Assembly: GCA_034408725.1 (NCBI GenBank)
Contig: JAWXCN010000032.1
Location: 1-64,000, forward strand
Origin: Candidatus Hydrogenedentota bacterium
Lineage (GTDB): Bacteria; Hydrogenedentota; Hydrogenedentia; Hydrogenedentales; SLHB01
Direction: 5' to 3'
Length of the DNA stretch: 64,000 nucleotides
Shown piece by piece: positions 31,054 to 54,888 of the stretch; position 1 is the stretch's first letter; every line of letters begins with the position of its first letter. A program made the position numbers and the translations under genes. A model generated the notes under the pieces. It made no database searches. It saw only the letters and a list, made by a program, of their open reading frames with translations, and was not told the origin of the DNA.

Positions 31054-32526
31054 TTATTGAATGTACGGTGTGATTTCCAGGTCCCATCGACTTAATGTGA
31101 CTGATTCAACATGCCCGTCGAGAAAAACTACCCCCCGCGCGGGCTGGTGTTCTGGCATTGCCGGCAGCAATTCGCGTGAAACCGCAACCGGCACGTCGCT
31201 GGCCAGCCTTGAGCGGCTCCAGGAGGGCATTTCGTCCCAAACAAGTGGAGCATTCTGTGGGTCTATCTCTGCGGCGAACTCGATCAATTCACGTTCGGTT
31301 CGCGCGGGAGTTATCAAGTCGTAAGACAGATTTCCCTCTGCGACCCAAGGCGAATGCAGTATGTAAGGGTCCGCAAGATATTCGGGATATAGGGAGAACC
31401 ATCCAGCGGGAAGATAGCCATTGTGCTCCCCCTGGAACATTTTCAGGGCAAGTCCAAGCAGTTTGAGGTTCATGAATTCCTGATTGCGCAATTCCTCCTG
31501 GGTAACGCCTTGCGCGGGACGCTCTTCGCCTGATAGCGGGAGCTGCGCGTCGCCTCGGTCCGTGGCCAGAAGGACCAGCGTCGGATTCTCAAATTCAATC
31601 TGCGCGATCGGCTTGTAGACTGGCGTCTCTCCGCCCCAGACTTCCCGTAGCCGCCGCTCCAGTTCAGTGAGGTTTTCCGCCGTTGGATTCTTTCGCAGTC
31701 CGAGCAGTTCTTCTTTCGGAAGACTCACCGTACTGCCTCTCTGTCCCGCCGCGAGATAGGTGATTTTCCGGCCGGGTTGATTGTCGAGGATCGATGGATC
31801 ATCCAGAAAATCAGGCACGAGTTGGTTCAAGGAGACAGGAAAGGAACCATGATGCGCGGCAGCAAAATCCAACAATGCCTGCGCGAGTTTCGTGACTTCG
31901 GACATGCGCCGCGCTCGCAGATCGATGGCTTCCTGTTCTTGTAGTATTTGCGCTTCCGGGAGTCTGATCAGTTTCATCCCTCCGTCGTCCATGGAGTAAA
32001 ACTCCCCATTGAACGTGAACCAGCTTTGGCCGATGGCTTCGGTCAACGTTGGGTTGAGTTGTCCCTCGAACACGCGGGCAATGTTTTCCCGGGGTTCAAA
32101 TGTGAGGATCAGTCGCAGCCCTGTTTCAACCTTTGCTTTTGCGCTATCGGAATTCCCGCCAGTTACATTGAGCACGGCGCCATCGTGTTTGAATTGAAGC
32201 CGTCCACGTGAAAATTCCTCGCCGGTATCAGCGATGGTGAAACGTTCCCACGTTCCATCAAGTTTGGGTGCAATGTCGAGCTCTTCGGCTGCCGTAGGCT
32301 CCTCGACTGGTAGCGCGGCCGCGGGCATCACCGTTGGCGCGGCTTGTGGCGGTAGTTCCGGCGGGGTCGGGGCTGGTGCTGGCGATGCACTTCTGGAAGC
32401 GACTGGCTTGATTGGAGTTGGAGCGTCATCGGTCCGCGCGACGAAGTAAACCGCGACGCCGGCTACAACAGCCAGAACCAATATTTGGATGGACTTCATG
32501 ATCGCGCGGACTGGTGGAGTGATCAT
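31054..32526 (-). CDS. Membrane-anchored protein with pseudopilin-like helices and H-X9-DG C-terminus
   Basis: N-terminal TM, Pro-rich linker, FP.SL.QLVP.FL, NLKLLGLALKMF, HQPARGVVFLDGHVE. Confidence 0.75.
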   Translation of the reverse strand: MITPPVRAIMKSIQILVLAVVAGVAVYFVARTDDAPTPIKPVASRSASPAPAPTPPELPPQAAPTVMPAAALPVEEPTAAEELDIAPKLDGTWERFTIADTGEEFSRGRLQFKHDGAVLNVTGGNSDSAKAKVETGLRLILTFEPRENIARVFEGQLNPTLTEAIGQSWFTFNGEFYSMDDGGMKLIRLPEAQILQEQEAIDLRARRMSEVTKLAQALLDFAAAHHGSFPVSLNQLVPDFLDDPSILDNQPGRKITYLAAGQRGSTVSLPKEELLGLRKNPTAENLTELERRLREVWGGETPVYKPIAQIEFENPTLVLLATDRGDAQLPLSGEERPAQGVTQEELRNQEFMNLKLLGLALKMFQGEHNGYLPAGWFSLYPEYLADPYILHSPWVAEGNLSYDLITPARTERELIEFAAEIDPQNAPLVWDEMPSWSRSRLASDVPVAVSRELLPAMPEHQPARGVVFLDGHVESVTLSRWDLEITPYIQ

Positions 32527-32708
32527 AGAAAACTCCCTGTATTGTTTACTGTAAATGGCGGCAGGGGTGTAAAGCGATCTATTGGTTGGCGACGGGACAT
32601 GCTGGTCTTTTGGCAAACGAGGCGGTGCGAACGCGGATTATCGAGCAACGATTGCGATGACCAGCACGAGCAGGAAAAAATAGGACGAGTATGAGGGATT
32701 GGGTGAAT

Positions 32709-33631: not shown

Positions 33632-33880
33632 TTACTTCCGAACGCTAATCCATCCAATTTCTATTTCCTCGAATACAAGCTCGGCCGGTATGGGTACGGA
33701 TGATCCCGCAACGAAGTCGTTATGACGACGTTCGACTTCATCAGCCCACGTAGCATCGATTTCAGGATCGATACCCGACGTATCGGGTAGCGAATCAAGT
33801 AAATGCGCAACGAGTTGGAATCTGTCGTATTCATCCAATAGAAGGGCTTCATTTTTCAGATCGTCCAGTGTGCGCGGCAT
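33632..33880 (-). CDS. Putative addiction-module antitoxin (TIGR02574-like)
   Basis: L..EAL.L...DR..L...LLDSL...EIDATWADEVERR...G. Confidence 0.8.
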   Translation of the reverse strand: MPRTLDDLKNEALLLDEYDRFQLVAHLLDSLPDTSGIDPEIDATWADEVERRHNDFVAGSSVPIPAELVFEEIEIGWISVRK

Positions 33881-33911
33881 TTCAACGGACCTCCAGACAG
33901 AAAACCGATTG

Positions 33912-34691
33912 CTACACGTAAACCGTGCCTTCCGAGTATAGCACGGCGTTTCCTGCAATCGACACGCGAGCGCCGCGGTCTTCGCACCAGATTTCGCCGG
34001 TGCGGGCGGAGATTTGGCGGGCGAACAATGTTTTCTTTTTCAGCCGTTGTGACCAGTACGGGATTAGCGTGCAATGCGCGGAACCCGTCACCGGGTCTTC
34101 GTTGATGCCTTGGGCGGGCGCGAAAAAGCGGGACACGAAATCGCAGTCCTTGCCTGGGGCAGTGGCGATGACGGCAAACCGGTCGAGGCCATTCAGTAGT
34201 TCGAAATCCGGGGAAAGTGCGCGGACCTGATCCTCGTTGTCGAAGACGCAAAAGTAGTCGCGCGCCGCGAGGGTTACACCGGGTTGCGCGCCGAGTCCCG
34301 AAACGAGATTTGGGTGTGGTGCGCACGGTTCCGGCGGACGGCTCGGGAAATCCATCTCGAAATTGTCTCCACTCTTCGCGACGACCAGTTCGCCGCTGGC
34401 GGTTTGAAAGCGTATTGATTCGCCGCTGAATTGCAGATGGTTGAACAAAACGAATGCACTCGCCAGCGTGGCATGTCCGCAAAGGTCAACCTCGACCGCC
34501 GGGGTGAACCAGCGCAAGCGGAAATGGCCATTCTCCGGAACGAAGAACGCGGTTTCCGACAGGTTGTTTTCCGCCGCGATGGCCTGAAGTGTGGAATCTT
34601 CCAGCCATGTTTCGAGCGGACAGACGGCGGCGGGATTTCCGCTGAATGGTTGCGTGGTGAATGCGTCTACGTGATATACCGGAATGCGCAC
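33912..34691 (-). CDS. PhzF family isomerase/epimerase
   Basis: VDAFT..PF.GNPAAV, NLSETAF, EVDLCGHATLA, EDPVTGSAH. Confidence 0.93.
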   Translation of the reverse strand: MRIPVYHVDAFTTQPFSGNPAAVCPLETWLEDSTLQAIAAENNLSETAFFVPENGHFRLRWFTPAVEVDLCGHATLASAFVLFNHLQFSGESIRFQTASGELVVAKSGDNFEMDFPSRPPEPCAPHPNLVSGLGAQPGVTLAARDYFCVFDNEDQVRALSPDFELLNGLDRFAVIATAPGKDCDFVSRFFAPAQGINEDPVTGSAHCTLIPYWSQRLKKKTLFARQISARTGEIWCEDRGARVSIAGNAVLYSEGTVYV

Positions 34692-34971: not shown

Positions 34972-36777
34972 ATGACGACAGCATCGGCAGCCGTAGCGTG
35001 GGCGCCACAAACCAGTGAAATTGAAAGCCGGGCGCAAAATGCCGGTATTCCCATCCATGCCAACACCGTGGACGAAGTATTGCGCATTCGTGCGGAAGCG
35101 CATCCGGACGAGATTGCCTACGTCTTTCTCGAAGACGGCGAAGTTGAAGGCCCTTCGTATACCTATGCGCAGTTGGACCGCCGCGCAAAGGCGATCGCCG
35201 CGTATCTGTTGGAGCAATGCAACCCGGGCGACCGAGCGCTGCTGATTTTCCCGCCTGGCCTGGATTATATGGCCGCATTTTTTGGGTGCTTATACGCGGG
35301 CGTCGTGGCGGTGCCCGTGTATCCGCCCGATCCGGGCCGGTTAAACCGGAGCCTTCCGCGACTAAAAGTTATCGCGAACGACGCGGACACGCATATCGCG
35401 TTGACGACGAATTACGTGATGCCGTTGTGCGAAATGTTTTCCGCGCAGGACCCGGACTTCGCAAAGTTCACTTGGATGCCGGTGGACTCCATTCCGGATG
35501 AGAAGGCTGACAGTTGGCGCGGCGAAATCTCGAAGTCTGACAGCGTCGCGTTTCTACAGTACACTTCCGGATCCACGGCGGACCCGAAAGGCGTGATGGT
35601 CACGCATGCAAACCTCCTCTACAACCTTTGGGATTTGAGCTATCTCTGGCATAGCGAAATGGCGCGGGGACGGCTGGTGACGTGGTTGCCGGCGTACCAC
35701 GACATGGGGCTGATCTTTGGTCTGTTGTATCCCATGTATCTGCGGTGGCCGTGCTACGTGATGTCGCCGCTTGCGTTCTTGCAGCATCCAGTTCGATGGT
35801 TGCAGGCGATTGCCAAGTACAAGGCGACGTACAGTTGCGCGCCGAATTTCGCGTTTGATTTGTGTTCGCGAAAGGTTACCGCGGCGCAAAAGGCGTCCCT
35901 TGATCTGTCGTCATGGAGTGTTGCGGGAAACGGGTCCGAACCGATCCGGCCTGAAACGCTTGAAAGGTTTGTCGAAGCATTCAAGGAATGTGGCATAACG
36001 CCGAGCCTATTCAAACCCGGTTATGGTCTTGCCGAAGCCACGTTGAAGGTGTGCGGCACGCGACCGGACGAAATGTACTGGACACTGTCGGTTTCGGGTG
36101 AAGAACTTGAGCACCATCGTGTAGTCATTGTTGCGCGCGACACTCCTGGCGCGCGCACGCTCGTGGGCAACGGCCGCTCGCATCTCACCACGCGCACGAT
36201 CATAGTTGATCGCGACACGGGCATTCAGTGCAAACCGGATACGGTCGGCGAAATATGGGTCGCGGGGCCGACAATTGCCAACGGCTATTGGAACCAGCCT
36301 GAAGCGACGGATGAAATTTTTAATGCGCGGCTGTCGGACACCAACGAAGGGCCGTTCTTGCGCACGGGCGATCTGGGATTCCTTCACGATGGGGTCGTGT
36401 ACGTCACGGGTCGAATCAAGGACCTGATTATTGTCGACGGCGCGAACCATTACCCGCAGGACATCGAAATCGCGGTCGAGAAAAGTCACGCCGCCATTCG
36501 GCCCGGGTGCGTCATTGCGTTCTCAATTGTGGAGAACGGCGAAGAAAAACTGGTCGTCGTGGCCGAGGCCGGCGGCATCCCTGAAGGGGACAACGAAGCG
36601 AAGCCGGTCATTACGGCTGTGCGCAAAGCCGTCGCGCAGGAACACAATTTGCGGGTCCATAAAGTATGTTTGATCCAGCCGCGCTCAATCACAAAAACCA
36701 GTAGCGGAAAGTTGCAGCGGCAAGCGTCGAAGCGCGGCTACCTGGAAGACACACTCGACGTCATTGCGGTCGGATAG
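34972..36777 (+). CDS. Fatty acyl-AMP ligase (FAAL)
   Basis: FLQYTSGST..PKGV, WLP.YHDMGLI, APNFAF, GYGLAEATL, FAAL-type insertion, LRTGDLGF, KTSSGKLQR. Confidence 0.93.
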   Translation: MTTASAAVAWAPQTSEIESRAQNAGIPIHANTVDEVLRIRAEAHPDEIAYVFLEDGEVEGPSYTYAQLDRRAKAIAAYLLEQCNPGDRALLIFPPGLDYMAAFFGCLYAGVVAVPVYPPDPGRLNRSLPRLKVIANDADTHIALTTNYVMPLCEMFSAQDPDFAKFTWMPVDSIPDEKADSWRGEISKSDSVAFLQYTSGSTADPKGVMVTHANLLYNLWDLSYLWHSEMARGRLVTWLPAYHDMGLIFGLLYPMYLRWPCYVMSPLAFLQHPVRWLQAIAKYKATYSCAPNFAFDLCSRKVTAAQKASLDLSSWSVAGNGSEPIRPETLERFVEAFKECGITPSLFKPGYGLAEATLKVCGTRPDEMYWTLSVSGEELEHHRVVIVARDTPGARTLVGNGRSHLTTRTIIVDRDTGIQCKPDTVGEIWVAGPTIANGYWNQPEATDEIFNARLSDTNEGPFLRTGDLGFLHDGVVYVTGRIKDLIIVDGANHYPQDIEIAVEKSHAAIRPGCVIAFSIVENGEEKLVVVAEAGGIPEGDNEAKPVITAVRKAVAQEHNLRVHKVCLIQPRSITKTSSGKLQRQASKRGYLEDTLDVIAVG

Positions 36778-36816
36778 GCATTTGGCCACCTTGGCCTGAA
36801 TTTAGGATGGTTTCCA

Positions 36817-39800
36817 TTGCAGAGTAAAGAAGCGATTCAAGCCTGGATCATCGCCCACCTTTCGGAAGAGACGGGCATTGATGCGCGCGAGATCGATCCT
36901 AACGCGGCATTTGATGATCTCGGTGTCGCCTCGCGCGACGCGGTGACCCTGTCGGGCGATTTGGAAGATTGGCTTGGCCGTACGTTGTCCCCGACGTTGT
37001 TGTGGGACCATCCGTCGATTGCGGCTCTGGCCGAACATCTTGCGGGCGGAGCGCCTCTGGCTGGAAGCGCAACGGCGCACGTGCTCGTGGCGGAAGTTCA
37101 CGAACCCATTGCAATCATAGGAATTGGCCTTAAGGTTCCGGGTGCGTCATCGCCATCTGAATTTTGGTCAATGTTGATCGAGGGCCGGGACGCCATTGGC
37201 GCCGTGCCCGCGGATCGCTGGGACAACGCGGCCTATTACGATCCCAACCCCGGCACGGCCGGAAAAATGTACACGGAACGCGGCGGTTTTCTCGATCGCG
37301 TCGATTTGTTTGATGCCGATTTTTTCGGAATCCCGCCGCGCGAAGCGGCGCGTATGGATCCTCAGCAGCGGTTGTTGATCGAGGCGGCGTGGGAAGCACT
37401 CGAAGACGCGGGCATCGCGCCGCCGAGTCTCGCGGGCAGCGACACGTCGGTGTTCGTTGGCATCAGTTCGAGCGATTACGCGCAGCTTCAAATGAGCGAT
37501 CCATCCCTGGTTGATGCCTACGCAGGCACGGGAAACGCGCACAGCCTCGCGGCAAACCGGATTTCATATTTCCTTGATCTGCGCGGGCCGAGCGTTGCGA
37601 TTGATACGGCGTGTTCGTCGTCCTTGGTCGCAGTGCATCAGGCCGTGGGTAGTTTGCGTAAGGGCGAGAGCAGTATCGCGCTCGCGGGCGGAGTCAACGT
37701 GCTGCTCTCACCAGAAGTGAACATGGTGTTTTCGCATGCGCGCATGATGGCGCCGGACGGACGTTGCAAAACTTTTGACGCAACCGCGGACGGATATGTG
37801 CGGGGCGAGGGTTGCGGCGTCGTGGTGTTGAAACGCCTTTCCCGCGCGGTGGCCGATGGCGATTCGATCTATGCCGTGATTCGCGGTACCGCTATCAACC
37901 ACGATGGACGAAGCAATGGCATTACCGCTCCGAACGGGTTGGCGCAACAGGACGTGATTCGCCGCGCACTGGCCGATGCGGGCCTGCAATCAACCGACGT
38001 GGGATATGTCGAAGCACACGGCACGGGCACGTCGCTCGGCGATCCCATTGAAGTCGAGTCTTTGAAAGCGGTGCTGTTGCCGTCGCGCGACGCGAATGCG
38101 CCGGTCGTGCTTGGCGCGTTGAAAACAAATATAGGCCACCTTGAGGCCGCTGCGGGGATTGTGGGTTTGATTAAGACCGCGCTGGTGCTCGACAAAGGTG
38201 TGATACCCGCGACGCTGCACGTGCGCGAGGTGAACCCGCTGATCCAGTTGGACGGCACGCCGATGCGAATCGCTGTCGAACAGGAGCCGTGGCCGCGGGG
38301 AGCGCGTCCGCGTATCGCCGGCGTCAGCTCATTCGGGTTCGGCGGTGCGAACGCGCACGCGGTGCTTGAAGAAGCGCCAGAAACCGCAAACAAGAAACCG
38401 GCACATGAAGACCGTCCGCAGCACGTGCTTGCGTTGTCCGCAAAGACTGAATCCGCGTTGCGAACGTTGGCGGGCTCATACGCAAACGAATTGAACACGC
38501 ATCCGGGTTCTTTTCCGGACTTTTGCTACACCGCGAACATTGGCCGCTCGGGACTCGAGAATCGCGCGTCGATACTTGGCTCGAACGCGGCGGACGCAGT
38601 CGCTGCGCTTCGGGAAATTGCCCAAGGCGAAACGCCGAAACCGGTGGTGGCCGGCACGGCGCCGCGCGGCGCTTCAACGCCGGTTGCATTTTTATTTACG
38701 GGCCAGGGTTCGCAGTTTGTACAAATGGGCCGTGGATTGTATGAAAGCAACCCGGTATTCCGGCGCGTCATGCAGGAATGCGACGAAGTACTGGGCACGC
38801 GGCTTGACAAGCCACTGTTGGACATCATCTATCCACGCGAGGGCGAGACTTCGCCGTTGGATGAAACGGCGTATACCCAGCCCGCGTTGTTTGCAATTGA
38901 ATATGCGTTATCCGAAGTCTGGCGTTCATGGGGCGTCACGCCCGCGTGCGTGATGGGCCACAGCGTGGGCGAGTACGTCGCCGCGTGCGTCGCGGGCGTG
39001 TTCACCTTCGAGGACGGCTTAAAACTTATCACCGAGCGCGCGCGCCTGATGGGCGCGATGCCGCCGGGCGGAACGATGGCCGCCGTGCTTATAGATGCGG
39101 AGACGGTGAAACTTGGACTTGCCGAACATGCCGGCGCGGTGACGATCGCTGCCGTGAACGGACCTGCGAACACGGTCATATCCGGTGCGGAAGAACTGGT
39201 TGATGCGATTTGCGCGCAGTTCAAAGCGCAGGGCATCAAATCTGTCAAGCTGGCGGTATCGCATGCGTTTCATTCGCCGCTGATGGACCCGATGCTCGAG
39301 CCGTTCGAAAAGTTTGCCGCGGGATTCACGTTTAAGCCGCCGCGTATTCCGCTCGTATCCAATCTGATTGGACAGATTCCTGCCGCGGATTTTGCGTTCG
39401 ATGCAGCCTACTGGCGCAAACACCTTCGCGAAGCGGTGCAATTCCATGCCGGCATTCAGTCGATGGTGAGCCGCGGCTACACAACATTCGTCGAGGCGGG
39501 ACCGCAGGCAACGCTGTCGAGTATGGCTGCGCGATGTGTCGAAAAGGACGCCGCCGCGTGGTTGCCGTCGCTTGCGAAAGGCCAGGACGATTGGCACGTA
39601 ATATTGCGGTCCCTGCAAACGCTGTATGTAAAGGGCGCATCGATAAACTGGAAAAGTTTCGATGCCCCCTATTCGCGCGCGCGCGTTCCGATTCCCACGT
39701 ATCCGTTCGAGCGTAAGCGGCATTGGCTTGATGTAAATGCGCAAGTCGCGGGCGCACCGGTTAAAAAAACGCATCCGATGCCAACACGCTTGCCATCAAA

Positions 39801-42800
39801 GGACATGGGCGATTGGCTGTACCACGTGCGGTGGATCGAGCAACCTCGCCAACCGGCGACTACGGCTACTCCCACGCACTGGATTTTGCTCGCCGACACG
39901 AAAGGCGTCGCCGATGCGCTTGCGCAACGCATTCGCGCGCGCGGTGGCCGTGCGGTTCTCGTTCGACACGGCGCGAGTTATATCGCAACAGGGTCCGATG
40001 AGGTGATTCTTGATCCCGCGAGCGACATACAGTTCGATCAACTGTGGAACGAATTCGGGACTGGGTGCGGTCGCGTAGTCCATTTGTGGTCACTGGATGC
40101 GCCGGCGCTGGAGGAAGCGACATTGGCGGCACTGCATCGCGCGCACGTGTTGGGTTGCGGCGCTGCGCTGCATTTGATTCAGTCCATCACCGCGTCCGGC
40201 GAACAGAGCGGGCGAAATGCGGCAAGTCATCCGCGGCGGCTGTTGTGGTGCATTACGCGCGGCGCGCAGGTTGTCGCGGCATCTACCGCCGGTGTGCAGG
40301 CCGCGCAAGCGCCGCTGTGGGGATTTGGCCGCAGCGCGGCGTTGGAAAACGCGGCGCTCTGGGGCGGCATGATCGATCTCGATCCGCTCGCGGATGCGAA
40401 TGATATCGAAGCATTGCTTTTCGAACTCGACGCGCCTGACGCTGAAAACCAGATGGCGTTGCGCGGAGGCGCACGTTATGTAGCAAGGTTCGCGCGGATC
40501 AAGGACGCACTTCCCACAAACGGAATTGGCCACATCAAGTGCCGCGAAGATGCGACGTATGTCGTTACCGGCGGATTGGGCGGATTGGGCTTGCAAGTGG
40601 CGAAATGGCTTGGTGATCGCGGCGCGAAACATATCGTGTTGTTCGGACGCACGCCACTACCGTCACGCGACCAGTGGGAAACATTAAGCGATGACGCGCG
40701 CGAGCGCGTCGATGCCGTGCAGGCGCTTGAGGCGCGAGGCGTTGCGGTGCGCTGCGAGCCCGTGGATGTTTCCGACGAGACGGCCCTTCAATCGTTTATT
40801 GATGCGCATGCGCGGAACGGAATGCCCGCGATCCGCGGCATCGTACACGCCGCGGGCGTCATTGACGATCATACCGTGAACGAGCTCAGCATGGACTCGC
40901 TGACGGCCGTGATGCGCCCAAAAGTGGACGGAACGATGCTGTTGCACCGTCACTTTGGCGGGCACGGCAACGGTTCGGGCGATCCGCTTGATTTTTTTGT
41001 GATGTTTTCGTCGGTGGCATCCGTGATGGGATCGCCGGGCCAGGCCAACTATGCCGCGGGCAACGCGTTCATGGACGCACTAGCCCATCATCGGCGCGCG
41101 CAAGGGCGCACCGCTCTGAGCATCAATTGGGGGCCTTGGGCTGAAGTCGGGATCGCTTCTCGTGGCGATATTCAAAAGCGGTTGTCGATGCAGGGCATCG
41201 GCTGCATCCAACCTGAAGACGGAATTGCCGCGCTGGATTCGCTTTTGTCCGCGGATGCGGAACAGGTGGGCGTGTTGCAGGCGGACTGGGACAAGCTGGT
41301 CACGCGCGCGCCCGGCATTGCCGAGTCCCCGCTGTTCGCGGAACTGTTGAACGGACACGCAAAACGGGCGGAAGCAGCACCCGGCAAGCCTCTGGGCCGT
41401 GGGGTGGCAAGCGACGTTGAGGCGATCGAAGCATTATTGCGGCGGCAGGTCGCGCAGATTCTTTATCGCGACGAGGAAGAGATATCCGTTGATCGCAATT
41501 TCGGCGAACTAGGCCTTGATTCGATCATGTTGATGGAACTCGTGAACAGCGTCGAACGCGACATTGGCGTGCGGTTGTTTCCGAAAGAACTGTTCGATCG
41601 GCCGACAATAGCCGCTCTTGCGCCTTATTTGGTCGGCGAAGTCGCTAAGTACGAAGCGCGCGTGGAGGGTAAGGCCCCTTCGACCGGCGCAGGCGTGCGC
41701 GTCGCATTGCCGGCGGTACGGTTGAAAAAAATCGGCCCCGCGGTGCGCAACAAACCGATTGCATTTCTGTTGTCCGCGCCGCGTTCCGGTTCTACGCTTT
41801 CGCGCGTGATGCTCGCCGGACACAAGGACCTGTTTTGCCCGCCAGAATTGCACTTTCTGCAATGCAACAGCATGGGCGAGTGGCGCGAAGGCATTGGCGC
41901 GACATATATCAGCGAAGGACTGCAACGCGCGTTGATGGAATTGCATAACCTGGATGCGGATGCGGCGCGGGTGATGTACGAGCAGTGGGTGCGCGAAGAT
42001 TGGCCAGTGGAAAAGGCTTACGCGGCGATTCAGGAAGCGGCGGGCCCGCGCTTGCTCATTGACAAGTCACCTTCGTATGGAACGGACATCGAAGTGCTCG
42101 AACACGCTGAACGCCTGTTCGACGGACCGAAATATATTCACCTGGTGCGGCACCCCTATTCCGTGATCGAATCTTTCATGCGCAATCGCTTCGAGAAAAT
42201 ACTCGGCGATACCGATGCCGAGCCGATGGCGTTGGCGGAAGAAGTCTGGACTTTGATGAATGCAAACATCAGCGATTTCTTATCCACTATCGACGACAAA
42301 CGGAAATGCCTGGTTCATTACGAAGACATCGTCGCGAAACCCGAAGAGACGATGCAGCGCCTATGCGAATTTCTCGATGTGCCATACGATCCCGCGGTCA
42401 TCAAACCCTACGAAGGTGAACGCATGACTGACGGCATTCACAACAAATCGATGGGCATTGGGGATCCGAATTTCCTCAAGCACAAGGAAATTGATCCGTC
42501 GCTGGGCGAAGTGTGGAAACGCATTCGGCTTCCGCGCAAGCTGGGCGGGTTCGCGCGGCGCGTCGCAGCCGAATTGGAATATGTTTTGCCAGTGGAAACG
42601 CCGGGGTCGATCAACGCCGATCTGGGTATTTCGTCAACCGTCCCGCACGTTGTCGCAATCCAGCCCAAGGGAGATCGTCCGCCGTTTTTCTGTTGCGCGC
42701 CCGCGGGCGGCATGACGTACATGTACTTCCATCTACCGCGCTACCTCGGCGATGATCAACCCATCTACGGTTTGCAAGACCCTGCGCTGAATCCGCTGTT

Positions 42801-43581
42801 CGACCCGCACACGACAATGGAATCGTTGTGCGCGGAACAGGCGAAAGCGATCCGCAAGATTCAACCGAATGGACCGTATTACCTTGGTGGTTGGTCGTTC
42901 GGCGGCGCGGTCGCGTTCGAGACGGCGCAGCAGTTGATGGCGGCGGGCGAACAGGTCGCCTATCTCGGAATTATCGATACGGAGGCCCGCATCGAAAAGC
43001 ATCGCGCGAAAACCTGGAAGGATCGGCTGAGGTTGGCCGGAGGCCAGCTCAAGATGTCGTTTAAGGTCATCGGACATTGGGGGCCTTATGCGAAGGATTT
43101 CATTTATATTATTCTTCCGTCCGCATTGAAGAAAAAGGACAAGGCGGGTGAGCCGTCGTTGTGGGAGTACATCACGTTTGCATGGGCGGACGCGATTCGC
43201 CACACGCTGGTGAAGCGCGCGGACATTGCGAACGTGGTTACGCGTGACAGCCGGGTGTTGTTGGTGAAGCAACCCGCGACTCGCCGCACCCTGAAAGTAT
43301 TGAAGGCGAATTTACGCGCATTGCTTGCGTATAAACTCAAGCCGTATCCGGGAACCATCACGCTCTTGCGCGCCGAGGACCAGACAATCATGCACAAGCT
43401 CCACGAGGACTGGACCCTTGGTTGGGGAGACCTGGCACAGGGCGGATTGGACGTCGTCGAAGTTCCGGGCAATCACGCTGTGCTGTTAAGCCCGCCTTAT
43501 ATCGAGCGTGTGGGCGAAGTGCTGCGCGAGGGCATCGACAAGGCAATGGCCAAGTACGGCGCAACTCCGGACACCGAATAG
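36817..43581 (+). CDS. Type I PKS: ACP-KS-AT-KR-ACP-sulfotransferase-thioesterase (Ols/CurM-like architecture)
   Basis: ACP1 LGVASRDAV; KS DTACSSS/HGTGT/NIGH; AT GHSVG and HAFH (malonyl); KR GGLGGLG, HAAGVIDD, NYAAGN; ACP2 LGLDS; ST SAPRSGSTL.RVMLAGH, DKSPSY, HLVRHPYSVIESF, DPNFL.H; TE GWSFG...PGNH. Confidence 0.93.
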   Translation: MQSKEAIQAWIIAHLSEETGIDAREIDPNAAFDDLGVASRDAVTLSGDLEDWLGRTLSPTLLWDHPSIAALAEHLAGGAPLAGSATAHVLVAEVHEPIAIIGIGLKVPGASSPSEFWSMLIEGRDAIGAVPADRWDNAAYYDPNPGTAGKMYTERGGFLDRVDLFDADFFGIPPREAARMDPQQRLLIEAAWEALEDAGIAPPSLAGSDTSVFVGISSSDYAQLQMSDPSLVDAYAGTGNAHSLAANRISYFLDLRGPSVAIDTACSSSLVAVHQAVGSLRKGESSIALAGGVNVLLSPEVNMVFSHARMMAPDGRCKTFDATADGYVRGEGCGVVVLKRLSRAVADGDSIYAVIRGTAINHDGRSNGITAPNGLAQQDVIRRALADAGLQSTDVGYVEAHGTGTSLGDPIEVESLKAVLLPSRDANAPVVLGALKTNIGHLEAAAGIVGLIKTALVLDKGVIPATLHVREVNPLIQLDGTPMRIAVEQEPWPRGARPRIAGVSSFGFGGANAHAVLEEAPETANKKPAHEDRPQHVLALSAKTESALRTLAGSYANELNTHPGSFPDFCYTANIGRSGLENRASILGSNAADAVAALREIAQGETPKPVVAGTAPRGASTPVAFLFTGQGSQFVQMGRGLYESNPVFRRVMQECDEVLGTRLDKPLLDIIYPREGETSPLDETAYTQPALFAIEYALSEVWRSWGVTPACVMGHSVGEYVAACVAGVFTFEDGLKLITERARLMGAMPPGGTMAAVLIDAETVKLGLAEHAGAVTIAAVNGPANTVISGAEELVDAICAQFKAQGIKSVKLAVSHAFHSPLMDPMLEPFEKFAAGFTFKPPRIPLVSNLIGQIPAADFAFDAAYWRKHLREAVQFHAGIQSMVSRGYTTFVEAGPQATLSSMAARCVEKDAAAWLPSLAKGQDDWHVILRSLQTLYVKGASINWKSFDAPYSRARVPIPTYPFERKRHWLDVNAQVAGAPVKKTHPMPTRLPSKDMGDWLYHVRWIEQPRQPATTATPTHWILLADTKGVADALAQRIRARGGRAVLVRHGASYIATGSDEVILDPASDIQFDQLWNEFGTGCGRVVHLWSLDAPALEEATLAALHRAHVLGCGAALHLIQSITASGEQSGRNAASHPRRLLWCITRGAQVVAASTAGVQAAQAPLWGFGRSAALENAALWGGMIDLDPLADANDIEALLFELDAPDAENQMALRGGARYVARFARIKDALPTNGIGHIKCREDATYVVTGGLGGLGLQVAKWLGDRGAKHIVLFGRTPLPSRDQWETLSDDARERVDAVQALEARGVAVRCEPVDVSDETALQSFIDAHARNGMPAIRGIVHAAGVIDDHTVNELSMDSLTAVMRPKVDGTMLLHRHFGGHGNGSGDPLDFFVMFSSVASVMGSPGQANYAAGNAFMDALAHHRRAQGRTALSINWGPWAEVGIASRGDIQKRLSMQGIGCIQPEDGIAALDSLLSADAEQVGVLQADWDKLVTRAPGIAESPLFAELLNGHAKRAEAAPGKPLGRGVASDVEAIEALLRRQVAQILYRDEEEISVDRNFGELGLDSIMLMELVNSVERDIGVRLFPKELFDRPTIAALAPYLVGEVAKYEARVEGKAPSTGAGVRVALPAVRLKKIGPAVRNKPIAFLLSAPRSGSTLSRVMLAGHKDLFCPPELHFLQCNSMGEWREGIGATYISEGLQRALMELHNLDADAARVMYEQWVREDWPVEKAYAAIQEAAGPRLLIDKSPSYGTDIEVLEHAERLFDGPKYIHLVRHPYSVIESFMRNRFEKILGDTDAEPMALAEEVWTLMNANISDFLSTIDDKRKCLVHYEDIVAKPEETMQRLCEFLDVPYDPAVIKPYEGERMTDGIHNKSMGIGDPNFLKHKEIDPSLGEVWKRIRLPRKLGGFARRVAAELEYVLPVETPGSINADLGISSTVPHVVAIQPKGDRPPFFCCAPAGGMTYMYFHLPRYLGDDQPIYGLQDPALNPLFDPHTTMESLCAEQAKAIRKIQPNGPYYLGGWSFGGAVAFETAQQLMAAGEQVAYLGIIDTEARIEKHRAKTWKDRLRLAGGQLKMSFKVIGHWGPYAKDFIYIILPSALKKKDKAGEPSLWEYITFAWADAIRHTLVKRADIANVVTRDSRVLLVKQPATRRTLKVLKANLRALLAYKLKPYPGTITLLRAEDQTIMHKLHEDWTLGWGDLAQGGLDVVEVPGNHAVLLSPPYIERVGEVLREGIDKAMAKYGATPDTE

Positions 43582-43596
43582 GCGCGCGCCGGCCGC

Positions 43597-44517
43597 ATGA
43601 TTCCACACCTGTTTGCGCTGCACCCCGCAGGTTCAAAACTGCCTTTTTTTCTTTGCGCCCCGGCCGGGGGCGTTTTGTTTCCGTGCTACAACGTGCTGAA
43701 TTATTGGGACGTGGAACGTCCTTTTTACGCGTTGCAGGATCCCAGTCTGAACAAGGATACGCCTTTATTTCAGACGGTCGCGGAACTGGCGCGCGCGAAT
43801 CTTGATGTGCTGAAATCGTTTCAGCCGGAAGGGCCGTATTTGATCGGGGGCTGGTCTTTTGGGGCGATGGTGGCATTGGAAATGGCGCATATACTGAGCG
43901 CCGCGGGCGAAGAAGTTGAACTCATCGTGCTCGACATGCGCGTGAACGGTCCGGGGCGCGAATCACCGCTTGCGAACCTAACGCCGATTCAGAAGGCCGT
44001 GGTGATTCCCCGGCTTATCGTGGCGGTGTTTAGCCATACGGGACCCTATTTCCGTGACGGTTTCTATGTACTGTTTGGCGACATGATTCGCCGCGGATCG
44101 AAAGCGTCACCGTTGCTGACGTTGATCATGAAGCTGATGGGCCGAGCGCCGATTGCGGACATCATCGAGCAGCGACCGCATCTCGATGGCATTCAGCCGC
44201 CGGGCCTGTTCAGGTGTCTGCGCGTGCTTGGCGCGAACATGCGGGCGTTTCGCAACTATGTGCCGAAACCGTTGGATATTCATGGCGCGTTGATCAAGGC
44301 CAGTGACAGCGCGTCGCTCGGGTTGCACGACCCGGATCCCGCAATGGGTTGGACGAGCATCACGACAAGCGGGTTGGATATTTATGACACGCCGGGCAAC
44401 CATGTGACGCTGATGCTGGAACCGGCGCTTGGGGTCGTGGGGAAGTGCTTGAATGACGCGCTCGAAAACGCCGAACAACGGTTGTTGATGCCTGACACAC
44501 TGACCGGCACGGACTAA
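43597..44517 (+). CDS. Stand-alone thioesterase, paralog of the PKS terminal TE
   Basis: PFFLCAPAGG, YALQDP, GPYLIGGWSFG, PGNH. Confidence 0.88.
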   Translation: MIPHLFALHPAGSKLPFFLCAPAGGVLFPCYNVLNYWDVERPFYALQDPSLNKDTPLFQTVAELARANLDVLKSFQPEGPYLIGGWSFGAMVALEMAHILSAAGEEVELIVLDMRVNGPGRESPLANLTPIQKAVVIPRLIVAVFSHTGPYFRDGFYVLFGDMIRRGSKASPLLTLIMKLMGRAPIADIIEQRPHLDGIQPPGLFRCLRVLGANMRAFRNYVPKPLDIHGALIKASDSASLGLHDPDPAMGWTSITTSGLDIYDTPGNHVTLMLEPALGVVGKCLNDALENAEQRLLMPDTLTGTD

Positions 44518-44538
44518 CACAGACCGCTGTGTTGTTGG

Positions 44539-45291
44539 GTGAGGGTGGAGGAAACGGTGATGTGGGAAAGCCCTCAACAATTTCCCGAATTGCGCGCGGG
44601 TGACGTCCATGTCTGGAAGATACCGCTTAACCAAACCCCGGCTGTGATCTGCGCGCTTTCGCGCGCCCTTGCCTCCGACGAACGCGAGCGGGCGGCGCGA
44701 TTCCATTTTGAAAAAGGCCGACAGCAGTACATTGTTTCGCGCGGGGCGTTGCGAGAATTGCTGGGCGGATACCTGGGTGAAAGCGCGGCAGCGATTCGTT
44801 TTGATTATTCACCGCGCGGCAAGCCTGGACTCGACACAGCGCACGCAAGCGATATTGCCTTTAATCTGACGCATTCGGGAGCGCTGGCGTTGGCGGCGTT
44901 CGCGCGCGGGGCGCGGGTTGGCGTGGACATTGAGCGTATGCGGGACGAATTCGATAGCCAACGCATCGCGGACAGGTTTTTCACGCCGGAGGAGTCCGCG
45001 GCGTTGCGCGGCGCGGATGAATCGGAACGGCTATTGCGCTTCGCGGAGCAGTGGACCCGGAAAGAGTCATTTATCAAGGCGCGTGGCGAGGGCTTGTCGT
45101 TTCCGCTGGATGCGTTTTCGATTCTGCTCGAGGGGGAGGAACTTGCGCTGCGCATTGCGCAGAGTCCAGTGGAAGCGGGGAGGTGGACGGTGCGCGATCT
45201 GGAAATTGATGAAGGGTATGCGGCGGCGTTGTGTGTTGAAGCGCGGGGGAGTGGGATGCGCGGGTTTGTTTGGGAGGGGATAGAGACCTGA
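44539..45291 (+). CDS. Sfp-type 4'-phosphopantetheinyl transferase
   Basis: ERERAARF, GKP, FNLTHSG, VGVDIE, WTRKESFIKA.G.GL. Confidence 0.93.
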   Translation: MRVEETVMWESPQQFPELRAGDVHVWKIPLNQTPAVICALSRALASDERERAARFHFEKGRQQYIVSRGALRELLGGYLGESAAAIRFDYSPRGKPGLDTAHASDIAFNLTHSGALALAAFARGARVGVDIERMRDEFDSQRIADRFFTPEESAALRGADESERLLRFAEQWTRKESFIKARGEGLSFPLDAFSILLEGEELALRIAQSPVEAGRWTVRDLEIDEGYAAALCVEARGSGMRGFVWEGIET

Positions 45292-45317
45292 GGAAGGTTG
45301 GTGTGGCGCGGGGGGAT

Positions 45318-45434
45318 GGAGACCTGTCGGTCGTGGGAGTGGCGCGGTCGGGAGACCGGCCACAACAAAAGGAGGGAACCTGCCACAACGTGCTCGTGCT
45401 CGTGCTCGTAATCGTAATCGTAATCGTAATCGTA
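45318..45434. repeat. REP-like unit plus (CGTGCT)3(CGTAAT)4 microsatellite
   Basis: Direct reading; between convergent genes. Confidence 0.85.
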
Positions 45435-45574
45435 TGTCGTTGGCTCGATTGCGATGACAATTACGAAGAAGAAAATTCTGAATTCAATTGCGATCCTCCT
45501 ACGCCCTCCGAAGCGGCAGGGCTGCGAAGGACGGTTTGCGATTACGGGTTGGGGGTGGTCGACGGGACTGAAGG

Positions 45575-45979
45575 TTATGGATTTGGCCAAACCCACGTCG
45601 TGCGGGTTGCGACTTCAAGATCGTTTCCAGCGGGATCGCGGAAATAGATCGAATGACCGCCGCTTGGCCAGTCTACTTCCGATTCTATTGCGACGCCATT
45701 GCCCAATAGATGTTTGCGCCAAGCGTCCACTTCGTCGTCGCCAATTTCGAAGGCGGCGTGTCCCGCGCCACGCGCGCCATGTCCTCCGAAGGGCGAATCC
45801 GGGTCGCTGGTTGATTCCGGATTAAACAAAAGAAACATCGTTGTGCCGCAACGGAAAAAGACGTGGCGGCCTTCCTGTTTTGCATAAAAATCGAGACCGA
45901 TCATGTCCCGGTAAAATCGGTCGGCGGCTTCGAGGTTATCGACATAGAGGCAGGTTTCGAGAATGCGCGTCGCTTTCAT
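45575..45979 (-). CDS. VOC/glyoxalase family protein
   Basis: ILETCLYVDNL..A..FY, GHAAF, SIYFRDPAGN.LE. Confidence 0.9.
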   Translation of the reverse strand: MKATRILETCLYVDNLEAADRFYRDMIGLDFYAKQEGRHVFFRCGTTMFLLFNPESTSDPDSPFGGHGARGAGHAAFEIGDDEVDAWRKHLLGNGVAIESEVDWPSGGHSIYFRDPAGNDLEVATRTTWVWPNP

Positions 45980-49899: not shown

Positions 49900-51588
49900 G
49901 TGGCAACGGCCATGATGTCCGCGTTACTACCGATGTCCGCGCTGTTGCGGCGGGAGCTTTTGCGGCACGTGCGCCGCGTGCGGGTGTTTCTCGCGGTTGC
50001 GGCGTTGCTGTGCATCTGCGGGTGGGTCATCTGGTCGTATTGGCCTGATGCACCTATCCCAGTACTGGAGGTCGCCGCCGAGCGAGGTGGTCTGACGACA
50101 ACGTTGTTGGCCGTGCTTCTGGCGGCATCGTTTGTGATTGTCCCTGGCTACGCGGCGATGGCCATTCGCGCTGAGCGCGACAACGACACGTATGAGTTGA
50201 TGCGGCTCACCCTGTTGACGCCGCTTTCGATTCTGCTCGGCACGCTGCTCAATATCACCGGAATGTTTGCGATAGGACTTGTCGCCGCGCTCCCGTTTTT
50301 GTATACGACGCATTGGATGGGCGGGTTGCCGTGGCACTATCTGCCGATCAGGCTTGGGATCATACTTTCGTCCACGGTGACCGCGGCTTCGATAGGTGTA
50401 CTGGCGTCCACGCAACGCCAGAAGACCTCAGACGCCGTCGGTTCAGCCTTCATTTACACGATGTTGCTGCAACTTGGCGTATTAACTCTGCCGCTGCGCC
50501 TCATCGCGCTCCTTGTTGACGAATATACGCAGTTGCAAGGTGTGGCAGATGCCCTCAGAACAACCGCGTTGCACAGCTCACCGATATGGGCGATTGGAAT
50601 GCGCACTGGGTTGGGGTCGTCGTTGATTTGCATTGCATCACAAGTTGTGTTTTCGGCCGTGATCCTGTTCATTGCCTGGAAGCGGCTGGGGGATTTTGAG
50701 TTCAAGACTGCCAAAAATAAATCGGTACAGTCTTGGTTCGCGCCTTCCGAACTGCGTGCGAAGTATCGCCGCGCGCACACATATCCTGATGGGAAGAATC
50801 CGGTGTTTGTGCGCGAATTCCACGACGCGATGCAACGGGCACAAGTTGACGTGACCAGTAGCTTGTTCGCCGTCTTGTTTACCGCATCAGCATTTGTCGT
50901 TGCTTTTGTGCGTATGTGGGTTCTGGCGAAGTCAAAATCGGGCCCCTATGGTCTTGACGAACTGACATATTATTTCATGGGATGTATTTTTCTCGGCGGG
51001 ATACTGATTCCCGGGTTGAGCACGCCTACGTGGATCAGCGAGCGCAACACGGAAGCGGAAGAATCGCTTGAGATGAGCCTGCTCACGAGGCGGGAGCGGT
51101 TTTGGGGTAGGGCCAGCGCGGCGGCGGCGCTCCCGGTGATCGTCATCACATGCTGTCTCGTTGGCGCATCGCCCGTGTTGATGGCGGTGCCGCGTATCCC
51201 CGGCGGATATGTCGGCGCGTTGGCAGGGTATTTCGCCGTTGTCGCGACGGTGGTGGTGTTGCTGGCGGTGGGCCGCGTGATCGCGCGACTCCCGATCAGT
51301 GCGGTATCCGCGGTTGCGCTCGCGTATGTTGTGTCCATCGCCTACATGGGATTGCCGGTATTGGCCGCGGGATGGTCGCAAGAGAACTCCCGCGATGTGA
51401 TGGGGAACTTTGTCGCGAGCATTAGTCCGATTACGGGATTCTTGCGGGTTCTTCAGTCTCGCGCGATGGGAGTTTGGTACGACGGGCCGGTTTTCAAATG
51501 TGCCGTGTTCATAATGGTGCAATCTGTGATTACGGCGGCGCTGTTGTGGACAGATTTGAAGGCTGAGCGAAAACTTCGGAATCGATAG
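49900..51588 (+). CDS. ABC-2-type permease-like polytopic membrane protein (two halves)
   Basis: LLRREL, AIRAER..T.EL..LT, NPVFVREF, ISER....E.L..S; many TM segments. Confidence 0.75.
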   Translation: MATAMMSALLPMSALLRRELLRHVRRVRVFLAVAALLCICGWVIWSYWPDAPIPVLEVAAERGGLTTTLLAVLLAASFVIVPGYAAMAIRAERDNDTYELMRLTLLTPLSILLGTLLNITGMFAIGLVAALPFLYTTHWMGGLPWHYLPIRLGIILSSTVTAASIGVLASTQRQKTSDAVGSAFIYTMLLQLGVLTLPLRLIALLVDEYTQLQGVADALRTTALHSSPIWAIGMRTGLGSSLICIASQVVFSAVILFIAWKRLGDFEFKTAKNKSVQSWFAPSELRAKYRRAHTYPDGKNPVFVREFHDAMQRAQVDVTSSLFAVLFTASAFVVAFVRMWVLAKSKSGPYGLDELTYYFMGCIFLGGILIPGLSTPTWISERNTEAEESLEMSLLTRRERFWGRASAAAALPVIVITCCLVGASPVLMAVPRIPGGYVGALAGYFAVVATVVVLLAVGRVIARLPISAVSAVALAYVVSIAYMGLPVLAAGWSQENSRDVMGNFVASISPITGFLRVLQSRAMGVWYDGPVFKCAVFIMVQSVITAALLWTDLKAERKLRNR

Positions 51589-53498: not shown

Positions 53499-53635
53499 CT
53501 GTTCCATCTCCATCGTCACCGGAAGCATGACTGAGAAGTGGATCGCATGGCAACAGGGGCGGTGGACGCATCGTTTCGGTTACGATGGATTGAATTCCCG
53601 GCGTTCAGGGCGAAGCCATATTGGAGGAACATATA

Positions 53636-54888
53636 TTGTCGTATCGACCTGTATTGCGTACCGCCAGGACGACTATATTCTTATGCGGACTATTGGTTGC
53701 CGCATGCGACTATACGTCGCCTTCGAGCTCTGATGTTGCGGGAGAGGATGATCTGCCAGTCAGTTTGGAAGAACTGAGTTCCTGGTACTCCGCGGTTCCT
53801 GAAGCGGAGAATGCCGCGCTATTGCTGATTCGCGCTGGCGACTCACATCGCGATCCGGATGCCGCGTCGAAGCCGGGTCTCCCATTGGCAGGCGATGCGA
53901 AACTTCCGCCTCCGGGCATGCCATTAACCAATGATATGCGGGCCGCGATTGGTCAATACCTTGTGAGTAACGATATTGCGCTTGGGACAATCGCGCGCGC
54001 TGCCAAGCTGGACAAAAGCAGATTTCCTATTGATCTGACAAAGGGTATGGACACGGATTTGGCTCATCTCGCTTCTTGCAGGACCTTGGTTCGATTGCAA
54101 TGCCTGAGTGCCGTCGCCAAGGCCAATTCCGGGGATGCGGCCGCGGCCCATTCTCGGTTGCGAGACGTTTTAGTAACCAGTAACGCGCTGCGTTATGAAC
54201 CGCTCTTGATTTCGCAATTGGTCCGTATTACATGTCATTTGATAGCGGCGGAGTCAATCGAGTACAGCGCTGACCGCGTGGATTTTACGGAGGCGCAGTT
54301 GGCGGAACTCCAGAAGTTGGCCGGAGAATGGGAGGACCCAGAATTGCTTTACCGCGCATACGTTGGCGAACGGTGCTTATCGGTTTCGTGGCTGAGCGAC
54401 CCAGCCAACGCAGAAAGGGATGATGGGCCCAATGTTCAGTTACCGCCGGAGATGTATTCAAAACGCGGTGTTGACGCAGTCATAAAGCATTATCAAATGT
54501 TGTTCTCTGCATCGAAGCTCCCTTCGCGCGAGCGTCGAGAGGAACTGTCCATATTGGCCGATGCAGGGCCGGAACCCAGAAGTGACAGCTTTGATGATTT
54601 AACTGCCGCGAGTCTAAGTCCCATAGCGGCTGTCCACCAGGCACACGACGCGGATACCGCCACCTCGCGCACAAGAAGTATCCGGATTCATTGACAGAAC
54701 TTGTCCCAACCTACATAACCGCGGTGCCCGAAGATCCTTTTACCGAGCGGCCTCTGCTCTATAAACGCGATGGCGTGAACGCAGCGGTCTACAGCATTGG
54801 TCGTGATATGAACGACGATCAGGGGCGGCCGCCGGTTGAGGGCAGCACACCGCCGGATGGGGATATCGTTTTCCGCTGTTTGAATTAA
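53636..54888 (+). pseudogene. Lipoprotein paralog of 54916..56226 broken by a deletion/frameshift near 54660
   Basis: Lipobox LLVAAC; aligns with the downstream paralog (PVSLEEL..WY..VP..ENAALL, EP.LISQ..RI.C, YRA.VGERC); C-terminus (LVP.Y...VP.DPF, VYSIG, DIV.R) is in another frame. Confidence 0.75.

Follow-up and report, generated by a model that had tools for sequence, protein, structure and literature searches.

A fatty acyl-AMP ligase, polyketide synthase and sulfotransferase cluster of Candidatus Hydrogenedentota that resembles olefin synthase and ends in a thioesterase of a different class

Genes and domains of the cluster

Contig JAWXCN010000032.1 of assembly GCA_034408725.1 (Candidatus Hydrogenedentota bacterium) was analysed over positions 1 to 64,000, and this whole stretch of 64,000 nucleotides is referred to here as the window. 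At 34972..45291 it carries a cluster of four intact, co-oriented genes on the + strand, separated by gaps of 39, 15 and 21 bp according to the open reading frame (ORF) listing and translation. They encode a fatty acyl-AMP ligase (FAAL), a polyketide synthase (PKS) of type I that contains a sulfotransferase (ST) and a thioesterase (TE1), a second thioesterase (TE2), and a 4′-phosphopantetheinyl transferase (PPTase). The cluster is real, intact and conserved, and its predicted proteins make it olefin synthase (Ols)-like up to a sulfated intermediate.

The first gene (34972..36777, +) encodes a discrete FAAL of 601 amino acids (P0001; PF00501 at 1e-65, and PF23024). Its top NCBIfam matches are all fatty-acyl-AMP ligase models, every one below its curated cut-off. 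The second gene (36817..43581, +) encodes the PKS (P0002, 2254 amino acids), for which Pfam domain calls give the order acyl carrier protein (ACP), ketosynthase (KS), acyltransferase (AT), ketoreductase (KR), ACP, ST and TE; an identical protein of 2254 amino acids is already on record in the protein collection. The loading ACP (ACP1, approximately 36826..37050, +) is one of two PF00550 stretches. Its limits were taken from its alignment with the post-FAAL ACP of P0073, a Prochloraceae cyanobacterium protein with the source name 'hybrid fatty acyl-AMP ligase/type I polyketide synthase', and not from the domain table. The KS (residues 96-469; 37102..38223, +) matches PF00109 at 3e-101 and PF02801 at 4e-43 and shows DTACSSS, HGTGT and NIGH motifs. 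The AT (residues 625-940; 38689..39636, +; PF00698 at 2e-63) is of the malonyl type, with GHSVGE and HAFH motifs, the latter being described as the malonyl motif of AT domains in the accessible part of PMC7327777. The KR (residues 1246-1443; 40552..41145, +; PF08659 at 2e-63) is preceded by a KR prefix domain, NF047870, at PKS residues 999-1079. The motif at the so-called LDD position marks B-type KR domains, and the 'VIDD' found there suggests that this KR is of the B type. The second ACP (ACP2, residues 1540-1604; 41434..41628, +) is the best PF00550 stretch and carries an LGLDS motif. It is followed by the ST (P0125, residues 1629-1939; 41701..42633, +), a CurM/Ols-type 'activating' sulfotransferase with Sulfotransfer_3 at residues 1649-1859 and counterparts in PDB entries 4gox and 4gbm, and by the embedded TE1 (P0124, residues 1940-2254; 42634..43578, +), with PF00975 at residues 1956-2225 and a triad of Ser2027, Asp2054 and His2220.

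The third gene (43597..44517, +) encodes TE2, a discrete thioesterase of 306 amino acids (P0003; PF00975), and the fourth (44539..45291, +) an Sfp/HetI-type PPTase of 250 amino acids (P0004). In the PPTase, PF01648 (1e-19) and PF22624 (the N-terminal AASDHPPT domain) lie above their cut-offs, and the HetI equivalog model matches at 3e-50, below its cut-off. E-values between 1e-19 and 1e-101 rule out that these Pfam matches arose by chance, and the translation shows intact active-site motifs in KS, AT, KR, the two ACPs, ST and TE. A scan for promoter-like sites (2 against 4.9 expected) and terminator-like sites (17 against 17.0 expected) was uninformative. On the opposite strand lies an ORF of 263 amino acids without a Pfam match (44805-45596, -), which shares about 490 bp with the 3′ half of the PPTase gene and is unlikely to be a gene.

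An earlier note on this DNA, made from the letters alone, had described the locus as FAAL, then ACP-KS-AT(malonyl)-KR-ACP-ST-TE, then a second TE and an Sfp PPTase. The ORFs and Pfam calls agree with every anatomical point of that description, and the three ST motifs that it quoted, PRSGSTL.RVMLAGH and DPNFL.H among them, are found in the translation.

Upstream line, sulfotransferase and thioesterases

From FAAL through ST, the cluster is collinear with the cyanobacterial Ols-type protein P0073. The FAAL is 46% identical to the FAAL domain of P0073 over 569 amino acids, and the PKS is 45% identical to it over 1965 aligned columns, in an alignment that ends where the ST ends. The cluster thus has a FAAL predicted to load a first ACP, a single malonyl KS-AT-KR-ACP module, and a CurM/Ols-type ST after the ACP.

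The ST region matches PDB 4gox (the ST of Ols) at 1.4e-93 and 4gbm (the ST of CurM) at 4.3e-91. Glu and His residues have catalytic roles in the activating STs of CurM and Ols. In the window ST, the PRSGST loop, which binds 3′-phosphoadenosine 5′-phosphosulfate (PAPS), and the PPELH, DKSP and RHPY motifs are all kept. In 57 STs preceding a CurM-type TE, 81 alignment columns reach a conservation of 95% or more, and the window ST has the same residue in 75 of these; the six deviating columns comprise five hydrophobic swaps and the replacement of Leu1662 by Ser. A tree of 122 ST domains (quick IQ-TREE run, SH-aLRT support only) places the window ST together with the CurM/Ols STs in a clade of 113 rows (support 99), apart from a group of 9 NRPS-type rows (non-ribosomal peptide synthetase, NRPS). 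Inside the larger clade, it belongs to a clade of 21 rows (support 88), all members of which precede a PF00975-type TE, and 54 of the 57 STs linked to a CurM-type TE lie in another clade, of 64 rows (support 90); the tree does not resolve the backbone that joins these clades.

The same genome also encodes a stand-alone Sulfotransfer_3 protein of 348 amino acids with a PRSGST loop (G000 contig C149, locus L002:156-1202, -), which is 27% identical to the ST domain of the PKS.

TE1 is, by sequence and predicted fold, a PF00975-type TE of the NRPS/Pks13 kind, unrelated to the decarboxylating TE of CurM (3qit). Its sequence neighbours in the PDB are NRPS TEs (7crn, 4zxh), EntF, Pks13, PksA and the TEs of fatty acid synthases (FAS). 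The CurM TE 3qit is not among the 40 PDB matches of TE1, nor among the 60 shown of its 72 profile matches at E<=1; 3qit is matched at 1.1e-88 by the C-terminal end of a Moorena homologue, which served as positive control. An AlphaFold2 (AF2) model of TE1, built from an alignment of 39 sequences, has a mean predicted local distance difference test (pLDDT) score of 78.5, with values above 90 in the core and of about 46-57 in the lid (residues 122-210), and its Foldseek neighbours are the TEs of NRPS, Pks13, FAS, EntF and NocB. The triad Ser88, Asp115 and His281 of the domain (PKS Ser2027, Asp2054 and His2220; GWSFGG motif) is invariant or nearly so in 39 TEs. TE1 thus has the features of a PF00975 type I TE, namely an alpha/beta-hydrolase fold, a GxSxG serine, an Asp after strand beta6, and a His after beta8. 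Mapping the conserved lid Arg of the CurM TE onto TE1 by hhalign gave no result, as the lid aligns too poorly.

The distinctive domains of Ols are FAAL, ST and TE, according to the available text of PMC3903477. Homology of TE1 to the CurM TE was tested for and was not found, so that the cluster stands outside the Ols family by its TE. The earlier note had stated that the domain order is that of Ols and CurM, that the ST motifs closely resemble those of CurM, and that the TE is of a different class. The collinearity with P0073, the ST tree with the 75 of 81 conserved columns, and the BLASTP, PDB, hhalign and Foldseek comparisons of TE1 bear out these three statements in turn.

Three non-redundant sets (<80% identity) were searched for residues that go with an upstream ST: 19 TEs immediately preceded by an ST, 21 TEs that are unlinked to one, and 5 TE2 sequences; the unlinked set consists of 19 TEs from NRPS/PKS ends of the same phylum, together with P0033 and P0036. 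Numbered as in the TE1 domain, Glu117 occurs in 17 of the 19 ST-linked and 4 of the 21 unlinked TEs (Arg in all 5 TE2 sequences), and Gln250 (PKS Gln2189) in 16 of 19 and 5 of 21 (0 of 5 TE2). These two residues alone passed a single-residue screen set at >=80% in the ST-linked and <=25% in the unlinked TEs, a screen that returned no single ST-specific Arg or Lys. Position 254 (PKS His2193) emerged once His and Arg were grouped: all 19 ST-linked TEs have one of the two, as do 4 of the 21 in the unlinked set, and all 5 TE2 sequences have Gly instead. Two of these four unlinked TEs, P0033 and P0036, have Arg254 and end lines with an ST further upstream, in the layout ST-C-A-PCP-TE (condensation, adenylation and peptidyl carrier protein domains between ST and TE). 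The other two (L038 and L041) also have Arg254, with no ST in the ~18-20 kb examined upstream, and residue 254 is therefore not an absolute marker. More distant ST-TE representatives of the NRPS type have not kept the feature, and their 254 loop cannot be aligned. In the AF2 model, residues 250-262 form the loop directly after strand beta7 (242-249), which we take to be, as in alpha/beta hydrolases in general, a site beside the catalytic His. On the basis of these comparisons and the model, His2193 and Gln2189 are candidate sulfate-recognition residues, and both are absent from TE2.

TE2 is 32% identical to TE1 (E 1e-52) and keeps the triad; its residues 254 and 117 are Gly and Arg, and its lid has a deletion. 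It follows the PKS in all five genomes of the genus and is missing downstream of the four loci from other genera that were examined. In a tree of 70 TE rows, the TE2 sequences form a clade (support 100) on a long branch (1.08), placed inside a clade (support 98) that otherwise holds solely ST-linked TEs (28 rows). This position indicates that TE2 is a fast-diverged duplicate of the ST-linked TE1. When compared with type II (editing) TEs, TE2 is a discrete protein with an intact triad, and by descent a duplicate of an ST-linked type I TE. Its most likely role would be that of a hydrolase specific to the genus, for editing or as a back-up, with unsulfated or stalled acyl-ACPs as substrates.

Host, neighbourhood and distribution

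The assembly comprises 5.17 Mb in 280 contigs and is 92% complete. DNA of the window occurs in 9 runs, all of them DNA from microbial-mat metagenomes, of which 2 may be the source sample. The proteins closest to the PKS, at 72-88% identity over ST-TE, carry the name Candidatus Hydrogenedentes in the source records. Among the best 120 matches of the MnmA encoded in the window, those that are named belong to Hydrogenedentes/Hydrogenedentota from 83% identity down, except for Sphingomonadaceae at 53%. The neighbours of the cluster are ordinary, Hydrogenedentota-like housekeeping genes, and its guanine-cytosine (GC) content is uniform with the surroundings. Compared with the closest genome, non-synonymous divergence (dN) is 0.04 for the ST, 0.055 for TE1 and 0.12 for TE2; synonymous divergence (dS) is 1.3-2.3 and saturated, and the comparison is therefore used solely to state that dN lies far below dS.

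The 135 Hydrogenedentota genomes were searched with the ST-TE didomain at E<=1e-20. Some match was found in 47 of them, and a near-full didomain in 14: in all five genomes of the host's own genus (72-87% identity), in five of the six genomes of genus g17 (61-63%; completeness of the remaining one is 72%), in all three of genus g18 (46%), and in one genome of another family (44%). Eight loci, the window and seven relatives, were annotated; for locus L031 (G103) the analysis covered the ORF listing. The FAAL gene lies directly upstream of the PKS gene in seven of the eight (in G096, ORF calling did not recover the FAAL), and a PPTase gene is found downstream in five. The g18 version of the PKS carries an extra C-methyltransferase domain. 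In the host genus (g1), g17 and g18, the cluster is bordered on its FAAL side by PhzF and/or YjeF_N genes, and the conserved gene order points to vertical inheritance of the core cluster at one chromosomal site in three genera of one family. Across four genera, no exporter, transporter, tailoring, glycosyl- or acyl-transferase gene is kept with the cluster in the annotated loci.

Three other origins of the locus were considered and rejected. Contamination of the bin by cyanobacterial DNA disagrees with the Hydrogenedentota-like PKS relatives, MnmA and flanks and with the genus-wide presence at one site; recent transfer from cyanobacteria disagrees with the conserved synteny, the separate ST clade and the unremarkable GC content; and a pseudogene disagrees with the intact ORFs and motifs and with a dN far below dS. 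A relic that is silent or in decay, or contamination from a cyanobacterium, appears highly improbable on the same grounds, with the cluster found at the same chromosomal site in each of the five genomes of the genus.

The earlier note had held that the host is not cyanobacterial, to which the PKS relatives and the MnmA matches lend support, and had asked for a synteny comparison in related genomes, where the FAAL and PKS core does recur at a conserved site, usually with a PPTase. Its description of the four genes as a 'self-contained' unit holds in part: the second TE is confined to the genus, and the PPTase gene is adjacent in five of eight loci.

Outside the phylum, the ST-TE didomain query retrieved 2717 representatives at E<=1e-30, of which the best 150 were classified, a ranking that favours proteins matching both halves of the query. 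Within these 150, the ST is directly followed by a PF00975-type TE in 75, by a CurM-type TE in 33 and by something else in 30, and it stands at the end of the protein in 12. Judging from these best 150 of the 2717 representatives, the pairing of an ST with a PF00975-type TE behind it is widespread among metagenomes. The contexts of this pair include PKS, NRPS (C-A-PCP-ST-TE) and FAAL-ACP-ST-TE proteins, and the C-methyltransferase variant of the line occurs with both types of TE.

Some further observations concern related lines. P0023 (1422 amino acids) has the layout FAAL-ACP-ST-TE without KS, AT and KR; it would have to load a pre-hydroxylated acid, sulfate it and release it. A second type of ST-bearing line exists in the phylum (for example G105:C1:196528-207965, G092:C17:686220-697547, G077:C13:29965-35126 and G101:C253:989-6031), in which the ST lies within a PKS ORF of 1.8-2.6 thousand amino acids and a PF00975-family TE follows 4-10 kb on, past NRPS modules. 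Two of the g18 orthologues (G110:C714:18420-20258 and G109:C35:4138-5982) contain one in-frame TAG each, and that of G108 contains none; the TAG could be a sequencing error, a real break or something else.

In the window itself, a short ORF at 33632-33958 (-), with the addiction-module antitoxin domain PF09720, lies between the YjeF_N and PhzF-like genes; in the sister genome G095 these two genes are adjacent, leaving no space for such an ORF. Four further ORFs of 357-562 amino acids, at 31054-32616 (-), 49900-51588 (+), 53621-54694 (+) and 54916-56226 (+), have no Pfam family at E<=0.001, and one of the four adjoins a GT2 glycosyltransferase gene.

Proposed pathway, product release and known systems

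In the pathway that we propose, the PPTase would prime ACP1 and ACP2, and the discrete FAAL would adenylate a free fatty acid and load it onto ACP1. The KS and the malonyl-specific AT would add two carbons, leaving the chain on ACP2, and the KR would reduce the 3-keto group. The ST would move sulfate from PAPS to the 3-hydroxyl; the genome contains a gene for adenosine 5′-phosphosulfate (APS) kinase, so that PAPS can be made. TE1, by means of Ser2027-Asp2054-His2220, would take the 3-sulfooxyacyl chain off ACP2, with His2193 and Gln2189 as candidate recognisers of the sulfate. As far as the predicted domains can tell, these steps together, from priming to the uptake of the 3-sulfooxyacyl chain by TE1, are very probably correct.

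The last step is less certain. After hydrolysis the chain may lose CO2 and sulfate and become an odd-chain 1-alkene, as happens in Ols and CurM, and the PF00975-type TE1 would then match the reaction of the CurM-type TE by convergence. The cluster may be a lipid line of the olefin synthase type that has had its releasing domain replaced by a non-homologous one and that makes a 1-alkene; to this reading we assign a probability of roughly 0.45, the alkene and a retained sulfate being nearly balanced in our estimate. In favour of the alkene, the cluster is free of accessory genes and so resembles an ols gene, and the upstream line is faithful to Ols. That the C-methyltransferase variant is known with either type of TE also speaks for this reading. 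Furthermore, the ST-TE lines with reported products (Ols and CurM, and HlaB by inference) lead to a terminal alkene, according to the accessible portions of PMC3903477 and PMC6274090.

Several points weigh against a 1-alkene. A BLASTP comparison of TE1 with two Ols/Cur-type proteins gave no significant match (best E 5.9 and 3.0), and hhalign of 70 TE1-family sequences against 57 CurM-type TEs (74% probability, E 2.7e-5) suggests a relation only through the shared alpha/beta-hydrolase core. We know of no PF00975 TE that decarboxylates. In P0033 and P0036, whose TEs belong to the same subfamily, the sulfate cannot be beta to the released carboxyl, and Arg254 is kept nonetheless, which fits recognition of a sulfate without elimination. 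The occurrence of an ST followed by a PF00975 TE behind NRPS modules has a similar bearing. Secondary alkyl sulfates are chemically stable, so that elimination may need catalysis.

In a tentative alternative, the sulfate is retained and TE1 plainly hydrolyses the thioester, which would release a free 3-sulfooxy fatty acid, an anionic surfactant-like lipid. By sequence and fold TE1 is an ordinary hydrolase or cyclase of the NRPS/PKS type, and its close kin P0033 and P0036 release products for which a decarboxylative loss of sulfate is not possible. The ST-TE didomain is common behind NRPS modules and is also found behind FAAL-ACP in P0023, where KS and KR are lacking. With the query used and at E<=1e-20, CurM-type TEs are absent from all 54 genomes of the host family, and the phylum as a whole (135 genomes) yields two weak stand-alone matches. 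On the other hand, the rest of the line faithfully copies an alkene synthase, the cluster has no conserved exporter or additional tailoring gene beside it, and tethering the chain and spending ATP merely to sulfate a hydroxy acid would seem wasteful. A free lipid of this kind was also not found in the open-access papers and preprints searched, and the literature search likewise returned no report of bacterial anionic sulfated lipids of the 3-sulfooxy fatty acid class.

The thioester energy may instead be used for transfer. The TE of Pks13 transfers its chain to trehalose, and TE1 or TE2 could in a similar manner act as an acyltransferase that moves the 3-sulfooxyacyl chain to a sugar, glycerol, an amino acid or a lipid, to give a sulfated membrane lipid. 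The Pks13 TE is among the nearest solved relatives of TE1 (profile E 2e-34; Foldseek ranks 5-10), and FadD32-Pks13 has the same layout of a discrete FAAL and a PKS whose ACP is N-terminal and whose PF00975 TE is C-terminal. Models of Pks13 and FadD32 in NCBIfam do match, albeit below their cut-offs, and such a use of the thioester would explain FAAL-ACP-ST-TE proteins such as P0023. However, the similarity to the Pks13 TE is no greater than that to hydrolysing or cyclising TEs, and no acceptor-making or flippase gene is conserved nearby; we therefore regard transfer as unlikely.

Whether the chain leaves free or goes to an acceptor, release of 3-sulfooxy fatty acids by a PF00975 TE without decarboxylation has, in our judgement, somewhat less than an even chance. 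On this view, PKS, NRPS and FAAL-ACP lines would all draw on the pair of ST and PF00975 TE as a general module for termination ('sulfate, then release'). Terminal alkenes, 3-O-sulfo fatty acids and a sulfated membrane lipid are the three possible products that the earlier note had named as well.

Both outcomes would matter. The route to terminal alkenes by sulfation and decarboxylative elimination is known only with a specialised CurM-type TE, and here the whole upstream line, including the activating ST, is kept and stably paired with an unrelated TE family. If 1-alkenes are made, elimination is independent of the CurM-type fold, an ordinary, swappable PKS/NRPS TE would be usable in engineered alkene production, and a heterotrophic candidate phylum from microbial mats would be added to the hydrocarbon makers that use the sulfation route. 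If no alkenes are made, the cluster would yield a sulfated lipid that is new, and numerous ST-TE lines from metagenomes would have to be reread as makers of sulfated products.

A full-text search of open-access papers and preprints found no paper on an ST followed by a PF00975-type TE, nor on any Hydrogenedentota PKS, which agrees with the view of the earlier note that the cluster has no characterised equivalent. Its further emphasis on a location outside cyanobacteria is right as regards the host, which belongs to Hydrogenedentota, although this is not new in itself: HlaB, the haliamide synthase of the myxobacterium Haliangium ochraceum, also has an ST-TE terminus outside cyanobacteria and is in print (PMC6274090). 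As far as that text is available, the TE of HlaB is CurM-like (37% identity) and ends a multimodular PKS-NRPS line.

Of the remaining known systems, FadD32-Pks13 of mycolic acid synthesis shares the discrete FAAL, the N-terminal ACP on the PKS and the C-terminal PF00975 TE; it differs in that Pks13 has neither KR nor ST, and its NCBIfam models match the window proteins far below their cut-offs. The terminal module CurM of the curacin A synthase (ST 4gbm, TE 3qit) shares the KS-AT-KR-ACP-ST-TE logic of termination and differs by its TE, which is of the decarboxylating 3qit type, and by having no FAAL or loading ACP, as far as the available part of PMC3903477 goes. The cyanobacterial Ols (that of Synechococcus/Picosynechococcus sp. 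PCC 7002 and its homologues) has FAAL, ACP, KS, AT(malonyl), KR, ACP and ST in the same succession at ~45% identity, with an ST (4gox) that is a close relative of that in the window. A FAAL on a separate ORF is also known in Ols (PMC3903477, PMC11730487, both in the portions available), and a split FAAL followed by ACP-KS-AT-KR-ACP-ST-TE is described in the latter as a 'third, rare architecture' of Ols, found in Cyanobacterium stanieri PCC 7202. In contrast to Ols, the window cluster lies in Hydrogenedentota, is accompanied by an extra discrete TE and a linked PPTase, and ends in a PF00975-type TE in place of the CurM/Ols alpha/beta-hydrolase type.

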